Positions 8,301 through 41,202 of a stretch of 64,000 nt of DNA are shown here, piece after piece. Within the stretch, counting starts at the first letter, position 1, and each line of letters starts with the position of its first letter. A program made the position numbers and the translations under genes. A model generated the notes under the pieces. It was not told the DNA's origin. It made no database searches and was given only the letters and a program-made list of their open reading frames with translations. The DNA is from Patellaria atrata CBS 101060 (lineage: Eukaryota). Location: the NCBI GenBank assembly GCA_010093705.1, contig MU006099.1, positions 434,001 through 498,000 on the forward strand, in the 5' to 3' direction.

Positions 8301-9072
8301 GACGTCTTAGGCGCGCCACATGTTGAAGATGCAGGACAGACATAATGTGGGAACAAGCCATCTCTCATTACAAGGGCGTTGAGCGACAAAGCAATGCATG
8401 TGGTTGGAGGTGGAGTGGAAGGGAGATGAGAACTTCGCTCACGGCGGCGGCTGTTTTTTGGCCGGGGTTGCACAAGAGCACGTGATGCTTTGGATGAAAA
8501 GGTCGTAGCGTATCCACGTGATGACGCTAAGAAAACCCCACCTCGAGACAACACTTCATCGTACTTCCATCTCTTTTCTTCTTCTTCTCTCAACAACGGG
8601 CAACAGCGCAAGAAATAATACCATCTACCGCAAAGAGGCTTCATGATCATGTTGTTAACGCTTAGAATCGCTGGCCAAGAGCGTCGCCGCCGGCTCTTCC
8701 GATGACATTCATGGGGCCACGATCGACTGGCTTCTATTTTGAATTACGCGACCAGGGGATGTTCCTAGCCCCATCAAGACTTCAGCGGCTACACTTCACT
8801 CATCACTGGAAGGACATCCCATTGAAACAAGTAAATTCGTGTCATCATTTTAAAAAGTAGTGAAGTAAGAAAGAGAAGGAGCGCGAATGTCTGAGGTACC
8901 CGCCCATTCTTTCCTTAGTTTCCTCCTGTTTTCCTTATTCCATTTCTCCTTTGCATCAAAAGTCTTCAAAATGGCCGAAATGAGTGGACTCCAATTCCCA
9001 AAAATAAGAAAGAAAAGAATGGTTGTACAAGAAGAGAGTTACCGCCACCATCAGAGCTCCGAGGATCCATCC

Positions 9073-20944: not shown

Positions 20945-23020
20945 CTACCAATCCCGTTCTTGCGGTCGCGCACTCTCCGATCTATGCCCGCCGTTTGGAT
21001 ATGCCATGTCCTGTGGAGGAGGTGCCGTGAAGCTCCTCTGCGGCATGGTAACAGCCTCCATTGGATGCCCTGGCAGTGGCGCCGAGACGTCTCTTCTCTG
21101 CCCTGCGGTCACTGGGTTGAAAGCAACATAACCTCCATTCTGAGGGCCCGGCGTATAGTTACGCTGCGGTTGTTGCACCGGTGTCGCGCTCCTGAATGGA
21201 TCGTAGTCGTCGGTGCTTTGGTTGGCGTTGTATGATTGAGAGAGCGGGGATGGGTCGACCGGGCTCATCTTGTATGCAGGGCCGGGAGTTCGCGCTTGAG
21301 ATCGGTAGTCGAATGACGAGGGAGGACTTGTGCTTAGTGGAGAAATACCGGGAGTTTGACCACGGGATAGATTACTAAAGCCGGTGTTGGACCTTGAAGG
21401 AGGACCGTATGGACCAGACATCCCACTCGGTGCGGGAGACCCTCGTCCCTGAGTGCTGAGAGGTGTAGGTCCCCTCTGTGGGAAGTATCCATTATTGAGT
21501 CGTGGTCCTGATGGACCCATAGAGCCCATTGACGGCGCTGGTGAGTTGCGACCAGGTACTGTAGTTCCTGGTCGTGACATTGGAGAATACGGACGTTGTG
21601 GGCCAATGCTGCTGTTGCTAGTCATTGCTCGCGCCATTGGAGCGGGAGCAAAGCTGTCATTGCTATCCGATGAAGGAAGAACAGGGGCTGGGGATGCAGT
21701 GCGATTAGGGTTGCCGTAACCCATATTTCCAGCTTGTGAAAGTAGTGGAGCATTGGAGCCATAGGTCATTGTTGTAGACTGTGTGAGAGACCTGGTAGGC
21801 GGCATCGGTCTAACGTCTGATCCAATGGAGGAATTCGTATCTTGGCGCTGATGCGAACTGCTTGTACCTGGTCTTGAAGCATACGGTGGAAGGGTTGCGA
21901 AGGAATCTTGCCTCGAGAGGGAAAATTGGGAATTGCCATCATCCTCCATAAAAGCAGGAAGTGTTGGTTTCCGGTTGAGCTCGGTAGGCTGTTTACCCCT
22001 CTTAATCGCCCTCTGTTCGTCTCTCACACGTTTGGCTTCCTCTTTATCTAGTGCCTTCCTCATCTTTTTACTAACAATCCTCTCAACTCGAGAGTCGATC
22101 TTTCGTCGGCAGTAAGCTGAGAGTCGACCATCTGAGCTAGGGATGTAATGCCAGAGGAAGAGGATATAAAGAATGCAGGCAATTATAAGACATAATGCCA
22201 ATATAACCCAGATGACGAGAGTGAACAACATGGATGACAAAATCACCGCTTGGGTCTTATTTTCATTATATAGGACTTCAACGTTGAACCAGAACTGGTC
22301 AAATGAATTTCGTCCTTTGTCAGGTTCGGCATGTTCACCCTTTGGCATGAGCTGAGCTTGCATTACAGACCATAATGTCACAGCATTAATGACCATTCTA
22401 GGACCTTCTGCGAAGATGATTCGAAGGGCACCTGTGGATGTTAGTTATTTAGTACAGCTAAATTGAAACGCAATAGTCTTACCCTGAAACTGGAAGTAAA
22501 CAAAAAGAGCAATGTAGTCGACACCCGATTTACTCTTGGTAAGTTCCGTGAAAACGAGAAATCGTCTCCAACCCTGACCTTTTCCCATTCTGATACTCTG
22601 TAGGATGACGGCCAGTTCGTTCAGATAGCTCTCAGCAATACCTCCTCTCTTGATAATTCGAATTGCTCGAAACCAATCGTAACCAGCAAGGATGAAGGAA
22701 AGAATGATGCATCCAGAGAAGATCCACTTAGAAATCTCGAACTTGATGGCCGGATCGACCTGACTTGACCAACGATCAAATGCGAGAAGGTTGATCGCAG
22801 TAAAGGTGTCTGCACCGTAGACCGCAAGTGTTACGATGACGATTCCCCATAACCAGATGTATGAAAAGACTGTAAGGCAGGAAGAGCTTCTAAAATCCGA
22901 AAGGTTCTATTACCATATTAGAAATACGTCTCATTGCGTCAATTGCGAACAGCGTACAATGTAATCCCATTTCGCCTCGTGAGCGACTGCACCCTTTTCT
23001 CTATCTCCAAAGCAACCCAT
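20945..23020 (-). CDS. KCH1: Kch1/Prm6-family potassium transporter / pheromone-regulated membrane protein with a Pro/Ser-rich C-terminal tail; two introns
   Basis: MGCFGDREKG..KWDYI|NLSDF..ADTFTAINLLAFDRWS..KWIFSGCI..GWRRFLVFTELTKS..ALFVYFQF|..FAEGPRMVINAVTLWSV, typical of the fungal KCH family; multiple transmembrane segments. Confidence 0.85.
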
Positions 23021-24581
23021 TATATTTGACAATTACGAATGTAAGGGTATAAAGATCGTGGGGGACCAGCCCAGCTGGCTCGTTTCGACGGAATTTCGGG
23101 GGCCGTTTCCAGGTGAGGGTAAGGAAGTATTCTACGGTATCCGTCTACTGGCAAGAGTCTTCGTCTTTACTGCCAGCAGTGATGAATACCGCCAGCGGTT
23201 GTGAAGGAGTGTGGAGAAAGAAATGGGTATCCTCGAAAGGTAAGGAACGTGAGTTGGAACGCGAAAAGGAGCGTATTGCGGTCCGGACACACAAAGACCC
23301 TACCACGGAATGCACATATCGGGAAAGTCGTTTGCAAGACGTTTTCGACCGCAGGGAGGATGTTGCACAGAGCGTATAACGCGATCAAGACAGTGGAGGT
23401 TCTATTCTTGCCGTCTCCTGTTTCGCAATCGGTGTGTTGGCCCTTGGAGGTCTCGTGCCAGTTCTACCAGTCGAACAATAGACGTCCTGTCGAATCACTG
23501 GTCGCTCGAGCGCGCAGACAATAACAGAGTAAATGAGCGACAATAGCAGATAAAGCTATCAACAAAACAAAAGTAAATTGACCCTCTACACTTGTGTAGA
23601 GGTTTGACTTGTAGAAAGAAAGACAAGAGATTAGGAGGTAGACGGGAATCCAACAAGTGAACTTGAATGGGGAAGGCCTTGCAGTCTTGGGGCTACGGAA
23701 GGAGGGGAACAAGGAAAGAGCGATGGGCGGCACTAGGCGCCTCCGTAGGCGTTGATCAAACAACACAAAATGGCCAATTAGCGCTCAATCGTACCTAGAT
23801 GAGTTCAAAGCACGGACATCCAATTTAGCGGGCATTATCAGACTAGCCGGTTAATTTTCGAGCCGTTCAATGCAGCCACTTAAAGCCACGATCTACCGTT
23901 GTCTCAAGTTCTTTCAAACCCTTAAAAACTCCGCGCTTCCGTTGATGCTGTACGCTTTCTGCAACAGGCGAACAGCGACTGTACCCTATCAGATCATTTT
24001 TGTAACAGTTCTCGAAGGCGAAGACGCGGGTGCGACTGATCATGTAACGTGCCCTACCAGATAACTTTACCCTCACACCATTTGTTGCGAACAAAAAAAC
24101 TTCATCATGCTGTTATAACTAATAAACATGCCTAGTAAAGAACCTGAACCATCTTCGTGATTGGGTGATTGTTTGTTGTCCTTTGACGGTATCTGCTATT
24201 CTCATACATGATCAATATCAGACGGAAAGTAGCTCTTACAGTTTGGTCCTACAAAACAGAGATTTCGAATGGGAGTCTTGTTCACGTACTGAGTCTAATA
24301 CCTGTTAAGAGCTAGGGAAATTATCAATAATTAAAGGGAAATAAGTGTTATAAGGGGTTTGTAGGGCTTATTCCACCTGAGCATACGCTCTCCACAGTCC
24401 TAGTCTTATATACAGCTAAGTCACAGTATCTCCCATCGCTGCTCGTACTGCAGAGCCTGCAATGAATAATGAAAGGGAACTGCTTCTCCTAAGTGCTCCG
24501 TAGTCTGGATGAGAATGAACGAGGCACTGGAGAAGAGGGCTTGTCTACCAAGAAGGACAAGGGGACTCGATGTGGAATCCT

Positions 24582-25253
24582 TCACCTTATGTCCATGATG
24601 CTCTCAGTTTTCTCTAAGGATTGCCTCGCCGACTTTTTCCTTATTCTTAAACTCCCAGACCGTCTCTCAGATCTACTGAGACCAATGCATAGCTGTGGGG
24701 AGCACATATAAGACAGCAAAATATGAAAGCAACGTACTAAAAGGGAACCATTGCTTGAGGGGTTTCCGAGCCCAAAAATGATACGCAAGATATTTGAGAA
24801 GCGACGTCTAGCCTTCGAATATGTTTCCCCTACTCTTGTTCTGAATAGGTTGGTGCAGTTGAACAGATGAAGAGAGGATGTCGAGGATAACTAACAAATT
24901 CCCATCTAATTTGGGTTGGGTTAGCGTAAGCACTCTGACTCAGCGCAAACTGAAGTCTTGCTGTCCGCGTCGACTGTACCTCTCATCCGATCTCTTTCAT
25001 CCAAATACTCACTACTTTCATTAAACACATCTCTAACTATACTAACAATAGCAGGTGAGTCTGTCACTAGCGTACTTACCGTACGGAACGATGCGAACAT
25101 GGCGATCCCTCCAGACTTGGAATGGAGAGTACACCGCAGGTGTATCACAAGCATATGAGCAACCTGGCAGCGAATCGAAATAAAGTTCATGAGCATCAGT
25201 GCATCAAGAATGAGGCTCTCACAATTAACGCGGCTGTTCAAGACGTCAGACAT
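24582..25253 (-). CDS. Possible small multi-exon orphan ORF (~165 aa)
   Basis: Three GT-AG intron-like intervals (24906-24979, 24841-24895, 24693-24737) whose removal keeps one open frame; no recognisable domain. Confidence 0.25.
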
Positions 25254-25364
25254 GGTCCAAAATCGTTGCACTATTCAACACATGAATCAACGTGGAATAA
25301 GCAGTTTTCAATTACATTCGAACAATCATCTAGCGTATAGATTCATAACAGACACAGATATAGC

Positions 25365-26886
25365 TCAATATGTGCAGTGGCCGCAGTAACCGCATTCTTC
25401 GACCGAGCATGCTGTGAAGTCCTTCTCGAATTCATCGTCCTCTTCCCACTCGCGCTCATCATCATCCTCCCGCTCGCGCTCGGTTCCGGCGTTGAAATCA
25501 TCAAGGTATCTTTCGTACTCAAACTTATCGTTACCGGCAATTTCAAGGACATCACGAACGTCGATCCATCGAGCTCTAACGGAAGGAGAGAGTACATCAT
25601 TGGATGTTCCCCCTTGCTCTCTCAACTCCAATAAGCCTCCTTCTCCTTTCACGATTTCCAATTTCCCGTCTTTTCGTTCGCGCACCGCTGCAATGATTTT
25701 TTTTAGAAGCTCCTTGAGGCGTCTTAAGTGTATCTGATTGTCTTCCTCCCATTGCTCTATCTTGTCACGGACATCGATCTTCTGGATGTCGTTGAAAACA
25801 CCATGAGCATGATAAGCAAGCAAGAAGTTTTGGATCTGTCTAATCCAGAGACGAGGAAGCTCAGGTGAGATGTTATCGTCATTTGCTCTGCGTATAGAAC
25901 GAGTCTTGAGATCGAAAACTGCAGAGTGAGGGATTTGGTGTCCTCCAGCCCTGACTTGAAGAGCATTGCTTTGACTGCTAGACGCCGAATTCTCCGTACG
26001 GGTATTCAATGAGGACTGAAATAGATCTTCGAGCGGAACGTCAGTTCCTGGACTGGACCCTGGCGCACTTGTTGAAAGGTTTTTGGCGTCGGAAACCATA
26101 TCCTTGTAATATCCATCACCTTCAAGCCTTACGATACAACTCAATCCTGAGAAATCATATTGGACAATGCGTTGATGAGAGTCCGATCCTTTGACATCTG
26201 GATCCCACGTTGTGTAAGCTTCAGGAAATGAGTGTCCAAATCCAACAACACCCTGTATCAACTCTTTCGGCGAGTTCTCTCTACGTATGAAGAAAACTGT
26301 GTTTCCTACAGCTTCTACAAGGATTCGGAAAGATTTTTCGGATGTTCCGCTCGCAAAACGAAGGAGATTACCCAGGGTGCTACCGCATGCGAACACGTCT
26401 ACTGAGGCAATGGGAAATTTTGGCTCTGATATAAGGATAGCTTCGACCGCCGGTTCCATTGGGTGTTTGGGATAGCGAGCTGCATTCAGGTCACGGAAAT
26501 AATTCCCAGAGTCTTGCATCAACTTTCTTGACCATCGCAAAGGGGTCCAAAGTGGTGGTTTTCCTAGCAATCCATTAGCATTGTTATCACTCGCGCTAAA
26601 ATAGTCGTATATCTAGGATCGGGAACAACACACCGGGGACGATTATCGAAGCATCGTCTTCATTCATCCAATTGAACGACGCAATATCTCTTGTGCCGGT
26701 GATTTTAGCGTCCTTCGAGAGTTCGTCCGACGTGCCATCTAGGTCAATAGTCCGCAGTGAGCTTATCAATGTACCTAGTGGAGGAGCAGGTGTAGTATTG
26801 ATGTTGGTATTCATATTTGAAGAAACTCTAGAAGAGCGGAACCAAGACTTTTTGTTCGGTCTAAACGCATTGTTGCAGTTGTACAT
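25365..26886 (-). CDS. DXO/Rai1-like PD-(D/E)xK-fold putative nuclease with acidic tail and C-terminal CxxxxCGYCGHC motif. Exons 26634-26886 and 25365-26563
   Basis: Intron 26564-26633 joins SFNW..IIVPG|KPPLW in frame. Ordered motifs VDVFACGSTLGNLL, FGHSFPEAYT, IVRLEGDGY, VFDLKTRS and LPRLWIRQIQNFLLAYH parallel DXO/Rai1 (DxxTWRG..L, GYKFE, GEVDC, ELKT, W.QSFL.G...VVAGFR). The gene model is solid; the fold is inferred. Confidence 0.8.
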
Positions 26887-27670
26887 GGTGAGGATTCCTA
26901 AGCTGATAACTTCTGATCAGTAGGTTATGTCAATTGTATTGAAACCTAGATTTTGCAGGCTCTTAAAGCTATCACCGGTGGCCGATCGATCATCTCACTA
27001 GCAAATGACTGGACAAAATCAACTCCTGTAAGTTTGCGGCTGCCAGCAGAGTTTCTTGGATTGTTCAATGCAGCTGTCTCCAAGGGACATGAATGCAAAC
27101 ATTACTGTCCAATGCGGATTGTTCATTGCCTTTCTCCGAAACCTCGCGCGTACTCCCACGTCTCTCCAGCAATCTACTTCTCTAAACAATAACTGTGGCA
27201 TGGGAAGTTGCAGCCTAACGATGATGAGGTTGTTGTACTACGCCACTATCCGCATCAATTGATTGGATTACAGCTCACCCTCAAAAGCGCACCCTCAACT
27301 CTACAGAATCATTCAGAAAACTCTCACACAATATCATAGATATCATTGCGGCACGGCACATTAAACCACTGAAGCGGCGTTATCGGTGTATAGCTGCCTA
27401 GTATCCTGTGAAACCTTGTCATCCACGACAAGGCTGCGTAAGAGAACTACCTTGTCCTTTATACGGTTAAGTACTCGTTAAGAGTCCCAAACCAAACAAC
27501 AAGACCATAAGCTTTCAAAAATTACCTGCTACTGCTGAGAAAATCACACGCAAACTTCTTCTCGTTCACTGGAAAGACCGTCGTTCGCACCTGCTTCCAG
27601 ATTTCCACGACACATCCCGCACAACACACTTCGAGCAGACCACGTATATCAGTCTAAACAACCAAACACG
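26887..27670. promoter_or_regulatory. Divergent (likely bidirectional) promoter between the DXO-like and helicase-AAA genes
   Basis: Head-to-head starts separated by 784 bp with no credible ORF between. Confidence 0.55.
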
Positions 27671-30600
27671 ATGGCATCTGTCCCCTCACAGTCCGAAAGG
27701 TCGGGGAAATTGGCTAAATTTTTCAATCAAATTTTGCAGGGCCAGCGTACCGTTAAGACTTCCCGGGAGTCTAAGCAATTCTTCGAAGCAATATGTGATC
27801 AAAATGATCCTTCAAAGTGCTGTGAAAGGCTCTTTGCAAGTGTCCAAGCTCTGGAATCTCTCCGGGCAGCATTGAGATCGGACACGTCGTCAACCTTCAT
27901 CAATGAATCGATATCAGGTTTCATCCACTACATTTCCGATCCTGCTGTAAAGCAACTCTGCAGTGGCCAGGTATTACAGCGGCTACTACAAGTTCTTTTG
28001 GATCCACCAACCCTATGGATAGCTCTAGTGCAATCTTATACCAACCGGACAATGACGGACAGAACTATGCAGGGATTTTCCTGGATCCTTCTGGAAATTC
28101 TCTTATCTCCAGGACATTTTGATATCGATATTTTAGATATTGCAAAGCGTGTAGTAACAGTCGAACTTGTTCAACCATCGACCACAGAGCTTCGAACTGT
28201 GTTATACAAATTACAACATGTACTTTCATTACAGTCTGTCGCCACTACGGTTAAACTTGAGAATGGCCCTGGTGGTCGTCACGACAATGATTTTGAGGAT
28301 TTCAGGCGAATTGCTATCTATCCAACAGCAGACGAATTCCGTTCCACTGAAACGCCGTTTTATCGCTCTGCCGATATGGTCCAAGAAACCAGTGAAGATG
28401 AACGCGCAGCAGTACATATTGACAACCAATTTCGATTACTAAGAGAGGATATGCTCGCGGAGCTCCGAGATGACCACCAACGAGCTTTGAAGAGCAAGGG
28501 TGCGAGAAGATCAGCCTTCTTCATCCCGAACTTAGCAGGAGCACATTTAATTTATGGAGATCCGAAGCAACAACGTCAAGCAGCAATATCATTTTACTGT
28601 ACAACCGGCCTGGAACAGTTCAAAGGGCTTGACCAGAGTCGTAGGAAATCTTTCCTTACTGAGAATCGGAATTTTCTAAAACACCAGTCATTTGGATGTC
28701 TAATCCAAGGAAGTGACATCATATCTTTCGCCACGGTTGAACGCGATATTGACTCTCTTCTGAAAGACCCTCCAATGATCGTATTACAGGTCTGTGGAGA
28801 CAAGGCGTTCGAGAAGACTTTATCAGCCCTAAAATCTGGCGGATCTCTAAGTTTCCTATCGGTGGATACCCCTTTCTTCGCATATGAACCGGTTTTGAAA
28901 TGCTTGCAGACCAAGCCTACACTGGCTTTGGCCGACGAGTTGATCAATTATAATGCAGAAGCGCCCGTTCACCATAGTAGACTAATCGACAATATCTTCG
29001 TTCAAAAAGTAGGAGAGAGTGTGGGTCGAGATCTTAAACCTTTGCTACAAACTGCAAAGTCCATCAAGCTTGACGAGTCACAAACCGAATCTCTCAAAGC
29101 GGGCCTCAGCCTTCCAGTGAGCCTAATACAAGGGCCGCCAGGTAAGCTATTTCTATCAATCGATAATTGAAAAGGAATTTACTATTCATAGGGACGGGGA
29201 AATCCTTTATCGGGGCATTGCTGGCAAAATCTTTCTATGACCTGACAAAAGAAATTATTCTAGTCGTTTGCTACACTAATCATGCCCTCGACCAATTCCT
29301 AGAGGACTTTTTAGATATTGGGGTACCGGAACATGCAATCGTACGTCTGGGCTCGAAGTCTACACCGAAGACCGCCAATTTGAATTTATTTGGGCAGAAA
29401 AGTACCTATAAACATGGTCGAGCTGATTGGGCGGCCATTGATCAATTGAGAGCTGAAGCTAACGAGCTACGAGTACAGCTAGACAATAAGTTTAATGATT
29501 ACTTGAGACTCCGTTTCGATCATAAAACTCTGATGGATCTATTAGAGTTTTCTGAACATGATGATGTATTTATGGATGCATTGACTACACCAGTTTCTGC
29601 AGATGGAATGGTAAAAGTTGGGCGTAAGGGAAAGACTGTGGGACCAGACTATTTGTTCAACCAATGGTCGAATGGACATGGTCCTGGTGTCTTCGTTAAT
29701 TCTATTTCCCCTACTCATCGAGATGTATGGACTATGACCCCGGAAGCACGAGCAGCAAAAATCAGCAGCTGGAAAGCAAGTCTTGTACAAGAGCGCATAG
29801 ACGTCATTGCATCGCTTTATCGTCGGTACAACACGGTTCAGGCCAAAGCAAGTGAGATATGGAACCAACGCAATGTAGAGATCCTGAAAACGAAACGGAT
29901 TATCGGTTGTACTACAACTGCGGCAGCGAAGTATGCTGAAGACATTCAACATGCATCTCCGGGGATCGTTTTGGTGGAAGAAGCTGGAGAGATTTTGGAG
30001 TCCCACATTTTGACTGCTTTGTCGTCAAAGACAAAGCAGCTGGTATTAATCGGAGATCATAAACAACTGCGCCCGAAAATCAACAATTATGCTCTTACGG
30101 TCGAAAAAGGAGACGGCTTTGATCTTAACCGCTCATTATTTGAAAGGTTGATATTGGCTGGATACCCCCACACAACACTCATGAAGCAACATCGCATGTC
30201 TCCTGAAATTTCATCTCTGATACGACATTTGACATATCCCGATCTTAAAGATGCACCAACGACAATGAATCGGCCTCCGGTGCGTGGTCTCCAGGACAGA
30301 GTTGTCTTTTTCAACCACAATCATCCAGAGGACAATATGGCAAACCTTAACGACCGTCGAGATGAGGGAGCAAAAGTTAGCAAACGAAACCATTTCGAAG
30401 GAAACATGGTTCTCAAGTGCGTACGATACTTAGCACAACAAGGTTATGGGACTGATAAATTGGTCGTTCTGACACCGTATTTGGGACAACTACATCTCTT
30501 GCGTGATTTACTCAGCAAAGAGAATGATCCCGTCCTTAACGATCTCGACTCACATGACTTGATTAAGGCGGGTCTCCTTTCCCAGTCTAGTGCTTATTTG

Positions 30601-33600
30601 ACGAAACGTCCGATAAAAATCTCGACCATAGGTAATTTTGATGCTAAAGGATACAAACAAGTATGCTAACTATTATAGACAATTATCAGGGCGAGGAGAG
30701 TGATATAGTGTTAGTATCACTTACACGTTGTAACGAATCGGGCGATATTGGCTTTATGAAAGCACCAGAAAGACTGAATGTTCTTTTATCCCGCGCACGT
30801 AACGGAATGATACTTCTAGGTAGTGCAGATACATTCATGAAAGCCCATAAAGGCCGAACCCCTTGGGTCTCATTCATACAGTTTATGCGGGAGCACAAGC
30901 ATATGTACGACGGATTACCAGTATTATGCATGCAACATCCGGATAGAAAGTCCATCATTCAATCTACGGAGGACTTTGACCAGAAATGTCCCGACGGCGG
31001 TTGCTTTGAACCATGGTATGTTGTTCTTAAACCTCATTGCTGCTCAATACTGATGTATTTCCTCAAGTGGAACAAAACTCAATTGTGGTCTCCACGACTG
31101 TCCTTCCAAGTGCCATCAACTTGCAGATCATTCAAAAATGAACTGCGAATTCATCGTGGAAACGACTTGCCCGAAGAAACATCGCATTCGCGTCAGATGC
31201 CACATTAAGGATCGGACGTGTCGAAAGTGTGAGCATGAAGAAAGACAAAAAGAGCGTAAAAAACAACGAGACCTTAAACTAGACATGGAACGAGACGCGA
31301 AGCAAGCTGCATACATGCAAAAACTCGCCGAAGTGCAAGACGAAATCGATTTTGAAAGACGTAAGCTGCAAAATAAATCCGAAGAGGAGCAGCGTCAACA
31401 AGCTCTTCATCAGCGCCAAAGAGACCTCGCGGACATAAAGGCTATAACAAAGGACATTGGAGAGATCAAACTGAGTGATGGGTGTCAATTTCCCCAAATG
31501 CCAGATTTACGGGACCCCGTTGAAAATTCCGGAAACTCATCTCAACCTGACCAGCAAACAGCAGACACGAGCTCTGTAGTACAGCCATCATCTTCAACCG
31601 CGTCTAAAGAGTGGCTGTACCAGAAAGAGTTTGAAGGAGCAAGCAATGAGGCTCTGGATGATCTCATGAAAATGATCGGACTGGAAGATGTCAAAGAGAA
31701 GTTCCTATCCATCAAATCCAAGGTTGACACTGCTCTCAGGCAGAACATCAACCTCAAAGATGAACGCTTCGGCGCTGCATTGTTGGGTAACCCAGGGACA
31801 GGTATGCAGAATCAGTCATTCTACTCTCAACCTCTATTAAATTTGTATACTAACATGATAATAGGGAAAACCACTGTTGCACGTTTATATGCAAGGTTCC
31901 TTACCAGTGTGGGTGCTTTGCCAGGAAATTTCTTCGTAGAAACGTCAGGTTCAAAACTTGCGAATGAGGGCGTGTCAGGATGTAAAAAGCACCTTGAAGA
32001 TATTCTGAATAATGGCGGAGGTGCGCTTTTCATAGATGAGGCATATCAACTAGCATCTGGAACAAATTACGGTGGCGCCTCCGTGCTTGATTTTCTCCTG
32101 ACTGAGGTCGAAAATACAACAGGGAAGGTTGTTTTCATTCTCGCTGGCTACAACAAGAATATGGAAGCCTTTTTCGCACACAATCCCGGAATACCCAGCC
32201 GATTTCCGCATGAGCTACAATTCAAGGACTACGAGGATGATGAACTACTACGCATCCTTGCTCATAGCATTGATAAGAAGTATAGTAGCCGGATGAAAAT
32301 CGAAGACGGTATGGGTGGACTATACTCACGTATCGTTGCTCGGCGTATCGGTCGCGGCCATGGGAAAGAAGGTTTCGGTAACGCTCGCGCCGTAGAGAAC
32401 GCTCGTGCGCAGATCGCCGGAAGGCAAGCAAAGAGGCTCCAAGAACAACGTAGAGCGAAAATGCAGGTTGACGACATGTTACTTACCAAAGAAGACCTAC
32501 TTGGGCCTGAGCCCGCTGCAGCGCTCAAGAACTGCCGTGCTTGGAATCAACTCCAACAGCTTATTGGTTTGAAAGCGGTAAAACAGTCTGTACAGGCTTT
32601 ATTCGACAGCATACAATATAACTACTGTCGAGAACTCGAGGAGAAGCCTCTTGTCGAATACTCTCTTAACCGCGTCTTTCTCGGTTCTCCGGGTACCGGC
32701 AAAACCTCCGTTGCGAAGCTGTATGGTCAGATACTAGCTGACATTGGACTTCTCTCGAAAGGTGAGGTTGTAGTCAAGAACCCATCAGACTTTGTTGGCA
32801 GTGTCCTTGGGGAATCGGAGAAAAATACCAAGGGCATTCTAGCTTCCACAATCGGCAAAGTTTTGGTCATAGACGAGGCCTATGGCCTATTCAGCGCACA
32901 GGGCGAGGGCAGAAGTCAACAAGATCCATACAAGACCGCCGTAATTGACACAATTGTCGCTGAGGTCCAGAGCACTCCTGGTGATGATAGATGTGTTCTA
33001 CTGCTTGGTTACAAGGATCAAATGGAGGAGATGTTCCAGAAGGTAAATCCAGGCCTCACCAGACGGTTCCCTCTTGATGCTGCATTCGTCTTTGAAGATT
33101 TCTCAGATGAAGAACTTCGCAAAATCTTCGATCTCAAAATCAAGGGTCAAGGATTCGATGCAACCGATCAAGGGAAAAAGGTCGCCATGGAGATGCTCAA
33201 GCGCGCTCACAACCGACCGCACTTTGGGAATGCGGGTGAGGTTGACATACTGTTGAACGCGGCAAAATCACGCCATCAGCAACGACTATCCACCGGAAAG
33301 ACAAAAAAACAAGCAACATTAGAAGCCCATGATTTTGATGAAGACTTTGATCGCGGACAACGTGCAGAGACTAATATCAAGCTCCTTTTCGAAGGCGTTG
33401 TGGGCTGTGAGGACATTATCGCTCAGCTAGAACGGTATCAACAAACGGGAAAGAATTTGAAGCTGTTAGACATAGATCCACGGGAACAAATCCCCTTCAA
33501 CTTCCTCTTCCGCGGCCCTCCTGGTAAGCCCGTCATCTTCTCTTTGGATAAGGTGTGTGCATACTAAAAACTTCGGTAGGAACGGGTAAAACAACCACTG

Positions 33601-34931
33601 CAAAGAAAATGGGCAAAATTTACTACGACATGGGATTCCTTGCAACTGCAGAAGTCATCGAATGCTCTGCCACAGAACTTGTGGGCCAATATGTGGGATC
33701 AACAGGCCCAAAAACTCAAAAGTTACTCGAAAAGGCTCTTGGAAAAGTTCTCTTCGTGGACGAAGCCTACCGCCTTGCTGAAGGTCAATTTGCGAAAGAA
33801 GCCATGGATGAGATTGTCGACTGTCTCACCAAGCCCAAATTCGCACAGAAGTTGGTCATGATTCTCGCGGGCTATGATGCACAGATCAACCACCTCATGA
33901 CCATAAATCCGGGTCTGACGAGTAGATTTCCTGAGGCAGTGGTGTTCAGACCTTTGCAGCCAGACGAGTGCATTACCTTGCTGGTCGGATTGCTTCGGAA
34001 ACGCAAAACGCACCTGGAGAAAAGTGGAAAGTGTTTGGATATGTCTGTGCTGGAGAAACCAACCGGGTCCTTCAGAAACGACCTACACGCTCATTTTCAG
34101 GCCTTGACTGCGCTGCAGGACTGGGCCAATGCTCGAGACGTACAGACAATCTATAAATCGATATTTAACAAACTCGTGAACAGCGCTACAAGGGTGAAAG
34201 GGGTTCCGACGTTGGCCCTCACAAGCTCCACCGTACTCACCGAAGTCTCTTCCATCCTTTCAGAACGCAGTCACAGGGGCAATAACGCGTCATCCTTTCC
34301 TCCCCCCAATAATTTCAGTCCGCAAGCACAAACAGCTACTCGGACCCTAGACCCTCAACCACTCCCTCCATCGAGCCACGCAACGAGCTTCACCCTGCAA
34401 AACCAACGCAACGACCCTCCCCCGCCACAAGAAACTCCTCAGCAGAACCAACAACCGGAACCCCAGGACCCCCGTGACCACAGCGTCTCAGACGCCAAAT
34501 GGGCACAACTGCAACAAGACAAAGCCGCCGCCTCAGCCCGCGAGCACGACTTCGCCGACCTTCTCGCCAAGGAACGCGACGTCCTCTCCTTCAAAGCTAA
34601 AATCGACGCAGAAGAAGCAGCGGCAGAAGCCGCCGCACAAACGGCCCTCAAACGCGCTTTCGACGAGCGAGCCATCGACGAGGCGAAACGGCGGCATGAG
34701 CAGGAACGTCTCAAATGGCTGAAGATAAGGGAGGTGTATGAGGCGGAGGTCGAGGAGCTGAAGAGGAGGAAGGAGGAGGAGATGCGCAGGAGGGAGAGGG
34801 AGGAGAGAGCCCAGAGACGGTTGAGGGATTTGGGGATTTGTCCGGCGGGGTTTAGGTGGGTTAAGCAGGCGGGGGGGTATAGGTGTTCGGCTGGGGGGCA
34901 TTTTGTTGATGATGCCGCTTTGGGGTTGTAG
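27671..34931 (+). CDS. ZNFX1/Hrr1/SAD-3-like SF1 (Upf1-type) helicase + NF-X1-type Zn finger + coiled coil + three CbbX/SpoVK-type AAA+ modules + C-terminal CPxG..CxxGGH Zn-ribbon-like motif; 2330 aa. Exons 27671-29141, 29192-30631, 30679-31015, 31068-31801, 31865-33523, 33580-34931
   Basis: Five GT-AG introns join five ORFs into 6993 nt in frame. Helicase motifs GGRHDND, IQGPPGTGKS, CYTNHALDQF, VEEAGE, LIGDHKQLRP, SLFERL, QHRM, LTPYLGQ, DNYQGEESD, RLNVLLSRAR. AAA motifs GNPGTGKT/FIDEAY/SRF/GNAR, GSPGTGKT/IDEAY/RRF/GNAG, GPPGTGKT/FVDEAY/SRF/ANAR. Confidence 0.93.
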
Positions 34932-35802
34932 GGTGTTGTGATGTCGGGGAAAGAAGGGGTCTGTTAAGGTGGTAACTGTACTGTTATACTTTGTATTTGT
35001 TGTTGATATCTTGTGATACAAATATAATACGATTTATATCCCCCTTGCTATTATATGCTTTCTGATAGTGTAGATATTTTGTATAGGAGGTTGAGGTTTG
35101 CTATTGTCAAGGTTGATACTGGGTATAAGTGGGTTTTGCAGTGAATTTGTACAAGGATAAATAGATGGTTGGAGGTAAGGGGGGTAGAGTGAAGAATAGG
35201 GATAGCTTGGCCTTGGACATGAAGAGGCAAGTTGTGTTTGCTGGATTTTAAGATTGGAGATTCTCGAAGGCTTATATACCTCGCTTTTGTTTCTTTCCTT
35301 CTTAGTTGGCGGCTTAGATGGGAGTTCAACCTGTTGTATCCAAGTCTAATAGCTCCGGACTCCTGTTGAAGCAGTTGGATTATGACCAAATTAAAGATTT
35401 AGTACTATTTCCTCAACACGGTTAAAGGTAGTATGCACTATGCCGGATAATACTTCATTACTAATGTGATTTGTGATAGGCAAGCCGCTTTATGCTGCGT
35501 AAAGAAAGATATCTGGACACTGATATTAATAAAAGTCCCTATATAGGCATAATCTTCGCATTAACGGCACTGAAGTGGTCTAGAGCAATGGTAAGCGCTG
35601 GTTACAGTGAATGTACGTAATCACGGGGAGGAAAGAGAACAGTGTAACTCATGAGTGGTGAAAATATATTCAGTTAGGTAACATGATGTGTTATTGGGAA
35701 GTCTTCGAAAAGTGGATAGACAGATATTCTTATTCACCTCCTTAACTCTAATCCAAATCAAAGAGTGTTTGGTAAGCTTTTCAGTTCAGCGCCCGGAAAG
35801 TA

Positions 35803-36600
35803 CTACTGTGGCTTGACATAGTCAATACCTTCAATACCACGATATGCAGATTTTGTTAACTGGTCATGGATCTCCTGAGCGTAGGCGATGCTTTCCGTAG
35901 TGACTTTGCCTATGAGTTCTAGCTCGCCACCGTAGAATACGTGAACAGATCCGGTCATATGTATTGCAGATGACTCAAAGTTAATCGCCTTCTGAGAGTT
36001 TAACAAGTCATACTCCAGTGCACGGTAATTCGAGATGTTCTTGAAGTCTTTGTTATCAGCCTTCTTGAGCTGCATATATTCGTGCCTGACTTGTTCAGGC
36101 TTGACGTTGAGCCCCCTGTTTGTGAAACTGTAGAAGGGAACGCAGGCCATATGATCAGCAAATTTGGCAATGACCAACATATACCTATATTTGACACAGA
36201 GTGCACCCAAATCGCAGTCTAGCAGCTCCTCATCATCATTCAAGAATGTAGGATCCTGAAGGTTCTTGCAATCAACGGATGGTATTGCGTGTGCAGTGTT
36301 GATGATCATGCCTAACTTGATATTCTCATATCTATAGCCGGATGGCTTTGACCTAGCCACGTAGTAAGATGGTCGACCATTCAGCTCTCTAACACTGGTC
36401 TTAGTTGTGAATACGGATTTACGATCCCGAATATCCAACTTACTTAATGCTTGAGACACATCCTGCGTCTGCACAGTGTCAGGTTTCCTCCAGTTGTTAC
36501 TTGTGCGCATAGCCGCCTGTTTTCTGCTATCCACGTTATTTGGGGGAACCTTCTGCCATGTTGACCTCCCTCCTAGGGTGCTGTATTTAGATTGACTCAT
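35803..36600 (-). CDS. DUF6590-like protein (265 aa) with MazF/PemK-like motifs and a low-complexity N-terminus
   Basis: GMIINTAH..KYRYMLVIAKFADHMACVPFYSFTNRGL..EYMQL..SAIHMT..IGKVTTESI pattern; single-exon ATG ORF. Confidence 0.75.
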   Translation of the reverse strand: MSQSKYSTLGGRSTWQKVPPNNVDSRKQAAMRTSNNWRKPDTVQTQDVSQALSKLDIRDRKSVFTTKTSVRELNGRPSYYVARSKPSGYRYENIKLGMIINTAHAIPSVDCKNLQDPTFLNDDEELLDCDLGALCVKYRYMLVIAKFADHMACVPFYSFTNRGLNVKPEQVRHEYMQLKKADNKDFKNISNYRALEYDLLNSQKAINFESSAIHMTGSVHVFYGGELELIGKVTTESIAYAQEIHDQLTKSAYRGIEGIDYVKPQ

Positions 36601-37071
36601 TCTCCAAGATCGTGGATGGTAGGTGTAAGGTACGTGTTGTGTTTGTGTTGTCGGATTAAGGTAGTGTCCAATATAGAGTTCTAAATCTCAGAATGTACTC
36701 TATGCAGCGTTTGTGGATGAACTGTCTTGGTGTATCTATGGCGCAGGACTGGACAATTATATATTTCTTCTATGTCCATGGAAACCAACTGCATAGTTAA
36801 GCAACAATTCGCAAAATTTGGTCTAGAATAGTAAGTATTGTGCGCCATATAGTCGATATTGGATGTGGTCACGTCACAACGTCTGGCTTTATGGGATCTG
36901 TTACAATGTCGAAACAATGGGAGAACCCTTCTACTGGCTCCAAACGGACTAACAAGCTTTGTTAAAACGAGACGAGAGCATTGTGTTTGACTGGTAAAAC
37001 GGTATTTAAGTTAAGGAATACTTGAAATAAGGAAGGAAAACTTGATACATATAGCTCAACAAAAACTCAAA

Positions 37072-38499
37072 ATGAATCCAACACTCGCAACACTCACAAC
37101 AATGTCGAATATTTTCACTTGGTTTCTGCCACAATGCGTACTCATACGGCATAAAACCAATGGTCATATTCATATTGGCGGAACAGACGATGCGGAAGGG
37201 GACAAGGATAGCGTGCAATTGGGTTGCACCAACGGCGAAACTAGAGTTGTAGCCGTTAAAGATGGATTGAAAGGTTGCGCCGCAGTCTTGATTTCTGTCT
37301 CTTTATCCGAAAAGATTGGGTTAGTGGCACAGTATGATCGGACAGTAGCAAAGTTAAAGGCCAAGATCGAAAAGCTAGATGAACGCCGTACAAAAGTTTC
37401 AAACGAGATCGACGAATATGAACTTCGTAGGATGGAGTTGGTCGTCAAACTCTATCAGGAATTTGATGCTGACCTGAAATGGGAACTCGATGCTATAGAC
37501 CATGATCTAAGGCCCCGGATGCGTTCACATCACGCAATAACCGTAAAGAAAGAAGAATGCACCACGGAGATAGAGAAGATCCAACAAGTACAAGGTGAGC
37601 TTCGGACAGAGATTACAGATATCCTCGGGAAGGTTATGGTCAATCGTCAAGTAATGAAGCCACTTCAACCTGCCTCCTCTGTTGGATCATTAGATCTGGC
37701 CTCGATATGCAGCTCTGAGCGAAGTTCAATCATCTTTAGCCCCGAAGAATCGAATAACCGCGGCGAAGCATCAGAGTCTCCTCAAGATAGGGATGACGAG
37801 AAACTCTCGCCTGAACAAATCGAGAGTGAACAAGCTTCAAAACAGTTCCAAATCGAGACGCTACGCGATCTTAACGAAGCTCGTCACGACACTATCGAAC
37901 TGAGAAAAGCTTTCGAGGAAAAGGAAGAGGAATACAATTCGGAACTTGCGGTTTATGAGAACATGTTAGCTCAAGGAGAAGACGTGCCATCTCGCGAAGA
38001 TTTCGATATATTCTTTTTGCAGAGAAATATGGAGATCACGAGATTGCTAGTGAAAGCAGAAAAAGACCTCGAGGCTGCGAAAGAACGTTATGAAGAAGCA
38101 TGGGGATTTCATCCGGACGCTCGTTACCATCCCAACAATCAGGACGATGGGTGGGACTATCCATTGAGCTTGGAGGAAATAGCAGAGACTATTGTAGACA
38201 GAGCTTCTATCAAGGCTTGGTTGAGCGGCCTGCCTGATATCGAGGTGACCCAAATGGAAGATGCAGACAAGGAGGAAGAAAGCAAATTCGATCAATCTTC
38301 CGACTCATGGGAAGCAAAGAGTGTAGCAATAAGCGATGCTATTAGTGCCCATGCATATGATGAATTCGAACGTAGATGCATTGATCGTTGGATGGCTGTC
38401 AAGACAGCTCAGTTGGAAAAAGCTCCAACTAAGCAGATGCCGGATTGGGAGTATCTCAAGGCAAGGGCGACCGAAGACCTTGAAGTACTTTTCGCATAG
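37072..38499 (+). CDS. Acidic coiled-coil protein of unknown function (~475 aa)
   Basis: Long intact ORF (first ATG at 37072; the track's 37042 start is TTG). Heptad-rich E/K segments; C-terminal WEAKSVAISD..IDRW..PDW motif shared with the pseudogene at 15.1-15.8 kb. Confidence 0.8.
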   Translation: MNPTLATLTTMSNIFTWFLPQCVLIRHKTNGHIHIGGTDDAEGDKDSVQLGCTNGETRVVAVKDGLKGCAAVLISVSLSEKIGLVAQYDRTVAKLKAKIEKLDERRTKVSNEIDEYELRRMELVVKLYQEFDADLKWELDAIDHDLRPRMRSHHAITVKKEECTTEIEKIQQVQGELRTEITDILGKVMVNRQVMKPLQPASSVGSLDLASICSSERSSIIFSPEESNNRGEASESPQDRDDEKLSPEQIESEQASKQFQIETLRDLNEARHDTIELRKAFEEKEEEYNSELAVYENMLAQGEDVPSREDFDIFFLQRNMEITRLLVKAEKDLEAAKERYEEAWGFHPDARYHPNNQDDGWDYPLSLEEIAETIVDRASIKAWLSGLPDIEVTQMEDADKEEESKFDQSSDSWEAKSVAISDAISAHAYDEFERRCIDRWMAVKTAQLEKAPTKQMPDWEYLKARATEDLEVLFA

Positions 38500-39133
38500 G
38501 ACTAATCCTCTTCGAATTTCAGTAGTAATAGCGCCCCGTATTATTAAATTTTTCCTTTCCGAATATCGTATCCGCTGATGAAATTTGCCGTTGTTGAGAA
38601 ATAACGTGAAACTGCGATAATGTGATGGCCTGGAATCGAGTTATCCCATCCTTCACCCAAAGGAATAATTGCGTTGGGTTTGACCTTTCAGTTCACAACA
38701 AATGCAATACAATGTAGCAGGTGGGACTAAAGACAAGTTAGTCAATAATTAGACTCTTTGAGCGAGTAGTACCGTGAGTAGTACCCAACATCGAGCCATA
38801 ATTGATGCAAAGTATATTATGGTCAGGAAAGACTCATACCAGTCATCGAGAATGACTTTGCGAAGAGCATCGTGATTTATCTCGTCATAACGATCAGAAG
38901 GACTGTGAGAGCAAGATCTACCACCAGAATACGGTCATAGACTGAGAAGGGTCTCCCATATAGGGACCGTAAAGACTCCTTCAACACTCTACTTACCTGC
39001 TTCACAAAGCGAACCAACCAACAACCACAATTTCCTCAAAGTATTCCTTTAAACCCGCTTTAGTAACGTAACTCAAAAACTCATAACCCACCATTACATC
39101 TCTCCTCATTGTTCAAGAACCTCATCGCTCGAA

Positions 39134-39408
39134 ATGGGACGCGGAGGGCCGCATCGTCTACCGGATTGCGATGAGGACAACGTGATCAAAAAAGCAAAAT
39201 GGTAACGCAGACACCTCGACACGCTCCCTGAGAGTGACTAGCACTAATTCTTCTAACCAGCGATCTAACCTACCAGGAGGAACAAGCGCGGAAAGATAAT
39301 GTCAAAACTGCAAATGGAGCTCATCCGATAGGAAGCAAAAAGGCTAAAGGCGTCGATTTGCGTTTACCAGAGGATGTAAAGGACCGCCGGTATAGCGGGT
39401 CAAAGTAA
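39134..39408 (+). CDS. Candidate 71-aa spliced microprotein (MGRGGPHRLPDCDEDNVIKKAKCDLTYQEEQARK...). Exons 39134-39201 and 39261-39408
   Basis: GAAATGG start context; intron gtaacg..ctaat/ctaac..cag (39202-39260) keeps the frame open to TAA; C/A-rich leader upstream. Confidence 0.5.
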
Positions 39409-40210
39409 CCGCTATTATAATATGTATATGGTGAGGGGAAGAATATCAATACCATCGACATCTGAAATGAGTTATCCTTCTCAAACCAATGTATTATACA
39501 CTAAAAAATGAGATGTAGACATATTCGGAACCTCCAGAGAATTGGAGATGATGTTTCGACTTACAGCGCTGGTCCTTTGTTGTCATTGCTCGAGAGTGAA
39601 AGAGTTTGGCTTTCTCGTCTTTGTCCTCGTTCTTGCTAGGTGACATTCCTTATACATCCCTAATGGAGCCTAGGGTCAAGACGTCCAATATGTACGTGTG
39701 AGAAGGTGGTAGCATTTTGTTACTGTTATCTACGGTGGGTTCCACGGAAAGTCGTCGTTCGAGATTGTCTCCCAAGGCTTTCACTACTATACTGTCGTAA
39801 GATGAGAAGTCGATTCAGATGTTAGTTGCAAACAAAGATGATAGAATGCTAAGAGCAATGATCAACCTCATTGCTCTTCTTCCGGCATGGTGGAGGAAAA
39901 TGAAGGCTAAGATTATCACATACACACTACACAATCGAACTAAAAGCATGTTAGAACCCCAGTTGCATTTTCCCTAGCATCCAAGTTCGGAATAGAAGTT
40001 TTGCTATGCAGCGTCAGGTCTGCATAACTATGTAGAAAAGTTGTTTCGCTAATAAATCAGACATAGGGAGTACTGTTACTGAGGACCGTGTGGTGAGCTA
40101 CCATGGACTACATAGGTCTTACGATGAACCTGTGTAACAAGGTGCATCCCCTGAACGGAAGTTTCATCAACAGGCGAGTCTCGGAGGGGCGAGTTCTGAA
40201 CGGTAATCAG

Positions 40211-41202
40211 CTATTCTCCAGCATCGCCGTTGGTGTTTGACTCAATTAGTGCGGACTTGTTTAGTGCTATGGGGTCCCTCGGTTCGATTGGATCTGTCGT
40301 CTTGAAAACGCTGTTCTCTTAGTATGTCCAAGGAGCCTCGCAGTGAGACGGTACCACTTACAGATGTTGCTCGTAGTACTGAAGCATCTTTTGAGGACAC
40401 TTCTGATTGATAGTAGCGAGTCGGTGCACGCTCTTGTTTCCGTTATTCCACACAATATACGCGTGACGTGTCTTCTCACCCGTAGTTGGGTCAGGTTTCT
40501 CCTCAACCGTATCGATGGCCATCACCTCGTTCTCCCAGCTCCCCTTCGGTGGCTGCCATTCTCGTTTGAACTTTGGTGGTGCTTCTGAGGTTGCTGAACC
40601 CGACGATTCCCGCTTCATCTTTTTCCTTCCCCGGCCTCCTTTCTCCTTTTCAATTGGAGTCGCCGCTGCGCTTGTGGAGATCTTCCGTTTGGCCTCCTTC
40701 TTTGGCAGTACGGGTCTACCACCGATTTTCTTAAAGTATGCTGCAAGGGCTTCGGGTGCGGTTTCCAGATTTTCCTCCGGCTCCCATGTCATATCATCCT
40801 TACTGTTGTATCCTTGCCATTTGACTTGGTAGTAGAGCTCCTACTATCTGGTTAACGTTTCTATTGCGAGAGACATGGTGTCAGTCGTAGCTCACTTTGC
40901 CGGCGAACTTGTGTCCCATGATCTTTTCTACGACATATCTGAAGTAGTGAGTTAGCCTCGCCTCTTGATTGTCAAGTTGATCGTATACTCCTCTGTATCG
41001 CCCTCTTCCTCATCCTCCTCTGCAATATCGTCCTCGTCCTCTGACTCAGCCTTCGCCGTCACTTTCTTTGCAGGAATAGCGTCACTACTTCCTGACTGTG
41101 AAGCTTCATCATCGCTTATGGCAGCTATTTAGATCGAAGTCAGTCTGGATACATTACAAAGGCGCGGTGGGTGCAACTGATGTGAGGGGGCGTACGAGGC
41201 AT
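40211..41202 (-). CDS. HP1: Heterochromatin protein 1 (HP1/Swi6/hpo): chromodomain + chromoshadow domain. Exons 41196-41202, 40989-41124, 40896-40938, 40362-40840, 40211-40310
   Basis: Acidic N-terminus, EEYVVEKIMGHK..YYQVKWQGY..DMTWEPEENL chromodomain, basic hinge, SWENEVMAIDTV..YIVWNNG..INQKCPQKMLQYYEQHLVF chromoshadow domain. Confidence 0.93.

Follow-up and report, generated by a model that had tools for sequence, protein, structure and literature searches.

In a 64,000-nucleotide stretch of the genome of Patellaria atrata CBS 101060, a Dothideomycete, two divergently transcribed genes, which we call A and B, form a conserved two-gene unit of filamentous ascomycetes. (We refer to the whole stretch as the window, and positions are counted from its first nucleotide.) By its sequence, gene B encodes a superfamily 1 (SF1) helicase of the ZNFX1 family that also has three AAA+ modules, and gene A encodes a protein whose predicted structure has the fold of DXO and Rai1. 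We think there is about an even chance that A and B are a co-regulated pair for the surveillance of RNA 5' ends, with the ZNFX1-family helicase and its triple AAA+ part divergent from an enzyme of the DXO/Rai1 fold.

The conservation of the pair is supported by two data sets. First, we compared the top 120 matches of the gene-A family with the top 120 matches of the gene-B family in annotated genomes. Twenty-two species are present in both lists, and in all 22 of them, A and B are on contigs of equal length. In all eight species with sequential locus tags, the tags of A and B are adjacent. These eight species (Sarea resinae, Psora testacea, Trypethelium eluteriae, T. subeluteriae, Trichoglossum hirsutum, Neocucurbitaria cava, Pyrenophora teres, and Anthostomella pinea) represent the Sareomycetes, Lecanoromycetes, Geoglossomycetes, Sordariomycetes, and Dothideomycetes. 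Several Aspergillus species add the Eurotiomycetes, so the linkage of A and B is found in at least six ascomycete classes. Both A and B appear once per species in the match lists, and the A proteins of two Pyrenophora teres strains are identical except for one difference between the gene models. The single copies and the strong conservation of both genes weigh against an allorecognition-type reading. (Two assemblies named Trichoglossum hirsutum are 77% identical; they are perhaps from different taxa, so we did not use this comparison.)

Second, we examined an independent set of 80 metagenome loci around relatives of gene A, which we searched by tblastn with the protein encoded by gene B (P0121). 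A locus was considered informative if 2 kb or more of sequence lay upstream of gene A, and 45 of the 80 qualify. The helicase is head-to-head with gene A in 38 of these 45 loci, and the gap between the first aligned residues of the two proteins is 385-1067 bp (median 599 bp). At 95% nucleotide identity or above, the 80 loci form 60 clusters. We also built a quick tree of gene A from 49 lineages and the window, excluding lineages with under 750 nt of the gene-A open reading frame (ORF). Thirteen of the lineages are uninformative; of the other 36, A and B are linked in 30 and unlinked in 6. The unlinked lineages are scattered across the tree (6 changes for 6 rows), so this reads as the repeated loss of an ancestral linkage. 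No other family of flanking ORFs was found in more than 5 of the ~60 lineages of metagenome loci, and none is common to the flanks in the window. As the flanking families change and A-B stays, the pair is conserved amid scrambled gene order.

Three of the metagenome loci have unusual structures. In L080, at 2128-4853, a Ty3/gypsy-type retroelement (with RVT_1, rve, and chromo domains) lies upstream of an unlinked relative of gene A; its insertion may have split the pair. In L053, at 5331-9010, the gene beside the DXO-like gene lacks the helicase core: the N-terminal ~73 residues of the helicase protein run straight into the AAA part, which starts at residue 1172. In L017, only the first ~514 residues of the helicase are visible.

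The product of gene B is the P. atrata protein P0121, with 2330 amino acids. Its closest solved relative by sequence is human ZNFX1 (PDB:9q9z, chain A; E = 6e-88). Other solved relatives are UPF1/NAM7 (E ~ 1e-28) and aquarius (E = 4e-27). In the HMMER alignment, residues 205-550 of gene B align to residues 414-774 of ZNFX1, and there is a second aligned block at 667-1134. Because the match to ZNFX1 is stronger than the matches to UPF1-like helicases and extends beyond the helicase core, sequence comparison places gene B in the ZNFX1 family. In Pfam, gene B matches AAA_11 (E = 2e-25), AAA_12 (E = 2e-38), AAA in three stretches, and AAA_lid_6 in two; the N-terminal region has no Pfam family. The Cys/His-rich region is nearly invariant, and its match to Pfam's zf-NF-X1 is weak (E = 0.16, 12 bits versus a cut-off of 22.7). 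No RZ domain or other E3 (ubiquitin ligase) domain is among the Pfam matches of gene B at E ≤ 0.1 (the best 25 of 26 families).

The AAA+ modules of gene B are similar to CbbX (E = 7e-33), and they match the NCBIfam models for SpoVK, EccA, and CbbX. (The SpoVK score, summed over the three modules, is 414 bits versus a cut-off of 423.) Each module has an intact Walker A motif (G-x-PGTGKT) and Walker B motif (DEAY). In an alignment of 32 orthologues, which are 51-61% identical to the window protein over ~2300 residues, the Walker A motifs of all four NTPase sites, the residues of Walker B or motif II, and a C-terminal motif are invariant. Ahead of this C-terminal motif are a stretch of low complexity and a charged helical one. 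In PADLOC, the helicase core matches models for the defence helicase MkoA (E = 9e-68 and 4e-46), but any UPF1-like helicase probably would, so this match is not specific.

Three of the five introns of gene B (29142-29191, 31802-31864, and 33524-33579) interrupt P-loop codons. The helicase and AAA module 3 are both cut at GPPG^TGK, and AAA module 1 at GTG^K. The intron in AAA module 1 is 63 nt long and in frame without a stop codon, so the raw ORF continues across it.

The product of gene A is 100% identical to the P. atrata hypothetical protein P0001. The gene-A family is large in ascomycetes, with 1128 matches at E ≤ 0.001. Many of these relatives bear the name "geranylgeranyl pyrophosphate synthetase", which is a misnomer. 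The AlphaFold2 model of gene A is confident, with a predicted local distance difference test (pLDDT) of 88.7 and a predicted template-modelling score (pTM) of 0.86. When this model is compared to PDB with Foldseek, Rai1, DXO, and plant DXO1 come first (E = 1e-14 to 1e-8, probability 1.0), and the cap-binding domain of eIF3d ranks after them. VIA-align matches the model to Rai1 and DXO with Z = 24-26 and a root-mean-square deviation (rmsd) of 3.3-3.7 over 284-308 aligned residues; eIF3d has Z ~ 16, and the next unrelated fold has Z = 5. Judging by the model, gene A has the DXO/Rai1 fold over its whole domain.

In our local copy of Pfam, the exon-2 ORF of gene A has no match at E ≤ 0.01 and no credible match at E ≤ 10; nor does gene A match any model in PADLOC or NCBIfam. 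With no RAI1 match at the sequence level, the relation of gene A to DXO is visible in structure only. In the ESM Atlas, RAI1-bearing clusters are among the structural neighbours of the gene-A protein, and the family is assigned to PF29557. (This family is in Pfam 38.1 and is absent from our local copy.) One neighbour is a nematode cluster of 215 members, of which 49% have Pfam's RAI1; it belongs to the same PF29557 and has a template-modelling (TM) score of 0.80 to gene A. Given this cluster, the gene-A family may not be limited to fungi.

The catalytic motifs of the DXO family are an arginine, G-h-x-h-E, E-h-D, and E-h-K. We aligned 40 members of the gene-A family, with 43-54% identity to the window protein. 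E154, D208, D276, K278, and Q301 are conserved in at least 90% of the sequences or in all of them, as are both candidates for the catalytic arginine (R82 or R138); E206 is the majority residue only. The two motifs of the candidate active-site stretch are on predicted beta strands (199-206 and 274-281), and within this stretch, an insert (222-256) is predicted to be disordered. These conserved acidic and lysine residues appear to fit a PD-(D/E)XK-type site. (Their catalytic roles are putative.) At the C terminus of gene A, a tail with four cysteines is nearly invariant across the 40 sequences. Neither this tail nor the C-terminal motif of gene B has a match in Pfam; each might be a metal-binding or docking element. 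The public gene model for P0001, which is partial, is ~66 residues too short: the ORF at 25368-25565 runs on through the acidic stretch and the tail.

The region between A and B contains a candidate promoter element. Of 35 non-redundant intergenic regions between A and B, 23 contain the 7-mer CAAGGCT (consensus ACAAGGCTG). There are 0.88 copies per kb in the intergenic regions and 0.24 per kb elsewhere in the same loci, and this 3.6-fold enrichment was scored on data that include the part from which the k-mer was chosen. Of 25 copies, 14 are 200-360 bp from the helicase start. Because a longer motif is shared within one clade, the copies cannot be counted as independent. We consider the ACAAGGCTG element a lead.

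The features of the locus are listed in Table 1. The initial annotation of this DNA had described four genes, in two divergent pairs (A/B and C/D) between a KCH potassium-channel gene and an HP1-like gene. Stop-to-stop ORFs and Pfam scans place all four genes where it had put them, and their ORFs are far longer than expected by chance (the window DNA is ~44% GC). It had also guessed from the sequence that gene A was DXO-like, which the Foldseek and VIA-align comparisons bear out, and it had named gene B a "ZNFX1-like helicase-AAA3", in agreement with the match to ZNFX1 and the three AAA stretches.

Table 1. Positions of the genes, domains, and motifs discussed in the text.
Feature	Position	Strand	Description
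KCH potassium-channel gene	20945-22906	-	Flanking gene
Gene A	25365-26885	-	Two exons; predicted DXO/Rai1 fold
Gene A, exon 2	25365-26563	-	Includes the stop codon
Gene A, C-terminal tail	25368-25421	-	Acidic run, then DFTACS-x3-CGYCGHC-x-Y (C-x4-C-x2-C-x2-C)
Gene A, candidate PD-(D/E)XK-type active-site stretch	25905-26117	-	E206-x-D208-G-Y to D276-L-K278-T-R280 (P0001 numbering)
Gene A, intron	26564-26636	-	73 nt
Gene A, exon 1	26637-26814, or up to 26885	-	Longer form begins at an upstream in-frame ATG at 26885
A-B intergenic region	26886-27670	.	Putative shared divergent promoter, between start codons; layout common to 38/45 loci
Palindrome CCTTGTC-N6-GACAAGG	27414-27436	.	Contains the ACAAGGCTG element; 236 bp upstream of the ATG of gene B
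Gene B	27671-34931	+	Six exons; ZNFX1-family SF1 helicase (by sequence) and three AAA+ modules
Gene B, exons	27671-29141, 29192-30631, 30679-31015, ~31070-31801, 31865-33523, 33580-34931	+	From tblastn of P0121 and splice junctions
Gene B, N-terminal region (residues 1-465)	27671-29065	+	Alignment of residues 205-465 with the human ZNFX1 segment before its helicase
Gene B, UPF1-like SF1 helicase core (residues 466-1020)	29066-30828	+	Walker A GPPGTGKS, motif II VEEAGE
Gene B, Cys/His-rich region (residues 1054-1137)	30928-31230	+	Aligns to the first NFX1-type finger region of ZNFX1
Gene B, three CbbX/SpoVK/EccA-type AAA+ modules (residues 1270-1521, 1555-1820, 1841-2100)	31627-34236	+	
Gene B, C-terminal motif (C2301 to H2321)	34839-34901	+	C-P-x-G-F-x-W-x-K-Q-x-GGYRC-x-GG-x-H
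Gene C	35803-36600	-	265 amino acids; divergent DUF6590 protein, modelled MazF/Kid fold; outside the conserved unit
Gene C, MazF/Kid-fold domain (residues 90-257)	35830-36333	-	Model core has pLDDT >90
Gene D	37072-38499	+	Acidic ORF of 475 amino acids; no family; outside the conserved unit
HP1-like gene	40358-40840	-	Flanking gene; chromo and chromo-shadow domains

How might the two proteins work together? A and B would be divergently transcribed from a shared promoter of ~0.4-1 kb, and their proteins would act on the same RNAs. The DXO-like enzyme would act on improperly capped 5' ends (triphosphate ends, incomplete caps, or metabolite caps) or would trim RNAs in the 5'-3' direction. The helicase would load onto the RNA and unwind or strip it in the same direction. 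The triple AAA+ part could oligomerise and remodel a protein or ribonucleoprotein (RNP) substrate. The acidic, Cys-tipped tail of gene A is a speculative candidate for this substrate. The target might be viral or otherwise aberrant RNA, or else an endogenous class of RNA. We propose this mechanism because of the known activities of DXO/Rai1 enzymes, a family of decapping enzymes and 5'-3' exonucleases, as described in PMC6943137, PMC7293010, and PMC9014881, and because ZNFX1 is a 5'-3' helicase, according to a preprint (bioRxiv 10.1101/2025.10.14.682297).

Several points weigh against joint action on RNA 5' ends. Linkage by itself is no proof of joint function. In the annotated genomes, adjacency was taken from locus tags and equal contig sizes, not from the DNA. 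In the metagenome, 7 of the 45 informative loci have other neighbours instead of the helicase, and 2 of the 38 linked loci (L053 and L017) are atypical. As for gene A, Pfam's RAI1 (PF08652) is matched by none of the 40 aligned family members at E ≤ 10. No solved chain in PDB has a credible sequence match to gene A, and a profile search gave 0 matches. The catalytic mapping came from the order of the motifs and from predicted strands, with no superposition. Finally, none of the public runs with this DNA is an RNA run: the two that turned up are both DNA contigs from a single sample and show no joints.

If the target were viral or other non-self RNA, then the pair would be an immune module, which is a special case of surveillance. 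The helicase-AAA protein would sense viral or double-stranded RNA, and viral RNA that is uncapped or bears a triphosphate would be destroyed by the DXO-like effector. Such a module would parallel metazoan ZNFX1 immunity in fungi and would combine a helicase with a nuclease, as Mokosh does in bacteria; we consider it rather unlikely. Pairs of a helicase and a nuclease are a common design for defence systems, and the helicase core of gene B matches Mokosh's MkoA (E = 9e-68). As discussed above, that match is unspecific for a UPF1-like helicase. The closest solved relative of gene B, ZNFX1, is an antiviral helicase (PMC13710534). But both genes are strongly conserved, with one of each per species and identical A proteins in the two P. 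teres strains, and this pattern is unlike that of fast-evolving fungal non-self genes. Strong conservation and identical A proteins fit a core pathway at least as well as they fit immunity. The pair could also be an ancient ascomycete unit for innate RNA immunity, centred on a ZNFX1-family helicase, with a divergent DXO-family 5'-end nuclease as its effector and with a triple CbbX-type AAA+ part in place of the metazoan ubiquitin-ligase module. We view this as possible but unlikely. If it is true, gene A would be the first enzyme to be named as a dedicated partner of a ZNFX1-family helicase, and the pair would connect the ZNFX1 immunity of animals with antiviral defence in fungi and with helicase-nuclease systems of bacteria such as Mokosh.

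A role alongside small RNAs is more doubtful. In this scenario, the helicase would serve RNA-dependent RNA polymerase or silencing complexes, and 5'-end processing of templates or products would fall to the DXO-like enzyme. The membership of gene B in the ZNFX1 family is consistent with this, as is the nematode cluster, about half of it with RAI1, that is structurally similar to gene A (TM = 0.80). On the other hand, Hrr1 (from Schizosaccharomyces pombe) and SAD-3 (from Neurospora) are not, to our knowledge, equipped with AAA+ modules, and no gene for RNA interference (RNAi) was seen beside the pair in the metagenome loci. Hrr1 and the ZNFX1 of Caenorhabditis elegans are tied to RNAi, as stated in bioRxiv 10.1101/2025.10.14.682297.

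It is also improbable that the pair has a housekeeping role in RNP biogenesis or quality control, with an AAA+ remodeller and with no role in defence. An example would be the maturation of rRNA 5' ends, as by yeast Dxo1. Both A and B are highly conserved and apparently single copy, and AAA+ remodellers are common in ribosome assembly. However, at least six lineages have lost the linkage and retained gene A. Dxo1 does mature 25S rRNA (PMC9014881 and PMC11571810), but the passages on ZNFX1 give no role for its family in ribosome biogenesis.

Alternatively, A and B might have no joint function, and the pair might be held together only by a bidirectional promoter that cannot be divided. The short shared intergenic region with its recurrent element would be expected in that case. 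But A and B stayed together across at least six classes while all other neighbours changed, and both proteins are from RNA-acting families, so we consider this explanation very unlikely.

We also considered genes C and D. The initial annotation had called gene C a "MazF-like DUF6590" protein and had noted its acidic neighbour, and both descriptions hold up. Gene C is basic, with an isoelectric point (pI) of 9.0. Its own match to DUF6590 (PF20233) is weak (E = 0.003, 18 bits versus a gathering score of 27), and it has no close relatives: a word-based homologue search returned only gene C itself. A full HMMER search found 108 distant relatives. All 50 aligned proteins (gene C and 49 relatives) match DUF6590 at E ≤ 0.01, with a best E of 2e-15, and G132, K137, and R139 are invariant among them. 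In a wide VIA search with the core of the gene C model, 12 chains with Z = 8.3-10.6 are MazF-type toxins, Kid, CcdB, and the type III toxin CptN (rmsd 2.3-3.5, with 89-110 residues aligned to chains of 94-155 residues); unrelated rows have Z < 5. Nearly all of the Foldseek matches listed are MazF/PemK-type toxins, and these are weak (E = 5e-3 to 0.1). By these model comparisons, the fungal DUF6590 family shares its fold with the bacterial MazF/Kid toxins. Gene D, which is divergent from gene C, has a pI of 4.7 and is 21% Asp and Glu. Searches of Pfam, PADLOC, and NCBIfam assign it to no family, and in the ESM Atlas, it has only a feature-level likeness to unnamed clusters from Ascomycota, with low recognition.

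None of the 80 metagenome loci around relatives of gene A contains a DUF6590 gene, a relative of gene C, or a relative of gene D (which was sought by tblastn). The helicase is full-length in 30 loci, and 24 of these include 1.7 kb or more of sequence downstream of its 3' end, which suffices to cover the position of gene C in the window. The initial annotation had considered that the linkage might be found only in this species. That is not so for A and B (22 of 22 species and 38 of 45 loci), whereas C and D were in none of the 80 loci. C and D are lineage-specific local neighbours, outside the conserved unit. The scan for repeats found none within 22900-40400, so no mobile-element borders surround the four-gene block, and scans with Rfam and for tRNAs found no RNA genes that mark it. 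The initial proposal of a four-gene defence island, with the helicase, the DXO-like nuclease, a MazF-like toxin, and an acidic inhibitor as one system, had the adjacency of all four genes in the window, the MazF/Kid fold of the basic gene C, and the divergent acidic gene D in its favour, but it is highly improbable given the 80 loci without C or D, the lack of a close relative of gene C, and the lack of repeats or mobile-element marks bounding the block. (The DNA flanking the block, at 22907-25364 (~2.4 kb) and 38500-40357 (~1.9 kb), has no long ORF and no Pfam match. Minus-strand frames of 80-117 codons at 23464-25274 are possibly a small multi-exon gene.)

We found no description in the literature of the A-B pair, of a fungal helicase-AAA fusion, or of DUF6590, although supplements were outside our search and the wider literature may hold one. 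We also found no publication that names AN7245, AN7246, or AN7247, that joins the NFX1-type zinc finger with mycoviruses, or that joins CbxX with a fungal helicase, and the one paper retrieved for ZNFX1 and Neurospora was unrelated. A search for ZNFX1 with fungi and AAA found nothing on fungal homologues by title or abstract, and the DXO/Rai1 papers among the matches listed do not mention ZNFX1 in the parts available. In humans, ZNFX1 is an antiviral gene linked to disease, and how it acts is only beginning to be understood (PMC13710534 and bioRxiv 10.1101/2025.10.14.682297); in the literature we searched, no study addresses its AAA+-bearing relatives in fungi. A partner gene that is held beside the helicase in at least six classes is a strong hint at the helicase's substrate, namely RNA 5' ends. 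The orthologue of the helicase in Aspergillus nidulans is AN7246, so tractable fungi are available. Also, the model of gene A points to a second branch of the DXO/Rai1 family, hidden at the sequence level, which would correct the annotation of many of the 1128 relatives.

Finally, we compared these proteins to known systems. Gene C shares the fold of the MazF/Kid/PemK and CcdB toxins in its DUF6590 domain; unlike the MazF-type toxins, it is eukaryotic, has no match to Pfam's PemK, and has a disordered N-terminus of ~90 residues. G132, K137, and R139 of gene C (G...K-x-R) are presumably located approximately where MazF has its basic catalytic loop. Mokosh resembles A-B in its genetic coupling of a UPF1-like helicase with a nuclease, but the match is limited to the generic helicase core. 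The nuclease of Mokosh is a phospholipase D (PLD) nuclease, so its fold differs from that of gene A, and A-B is a eukaryotic divergent gene pair rather than an operon.

Human ZNFX1 (PDB:9q9z) aligns with gene B across the pre-helicase region, the UPF1-like SF1 core, and the Cys/His region. Other relatives of ZNFX1 are Hrr1, SAD-3, and C. elegans ZNFX-1, and motif II of gene B is also of the EEAxE type. Hrr1 and SAD-3 function with RNA-dependent RNA polymerase or silencing complexes. A stretch that does not align between gene B and ZNFX1 has ~117 residues in gene B versus ~233 in ZNFX1. (Insertion 1C of ZNFX1 is described in bioRxiv 10.1101/2025.10.14.682297, and according to this preprint, C. 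elegans ZNFX1 is also without an RZ domain.) At the C terminus, human ZNFX1 has an E3 module (an RZ or Miz finger), where gene B has three CbbX/SpoVK-type AAA+ modules and a charged C...C...H tail. Each of these modules matches CbbX (the activase of red-type Rubisco), SpoVK, and EccA, with AAA_lid_6 and the Walker A and B motifs; in gene B, there are three modules in a single chain, and they are fused to a helicase. Also unlike ZNFX1, gene B comes with a conserved partner gene.

Gene A shares, in its model, the whole-chain fold of DXO, Rai1, and Dxo1, with acidic and lysine residues on neighbouring strands, as in PD-(D/E)XK enzymes. It differs from DXO and Rai1 in its acidic C-terminal tail with four cysteines, its disordered insert, and its lack of a sequence match to RAI1. 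Eukaryotes generally encode a single DXO family member (PMC11571810), so gene A would be a further, divergent member in these fungi. Like Rai1, which is found in the Rat1-Rai1 complex, gene A apparently partners with a larger 5'-3' RNA enzyme. The partner of Rai1 is Rat1/Xrn2, while the partner of gene A, as suggested by linkage, is a helicase.

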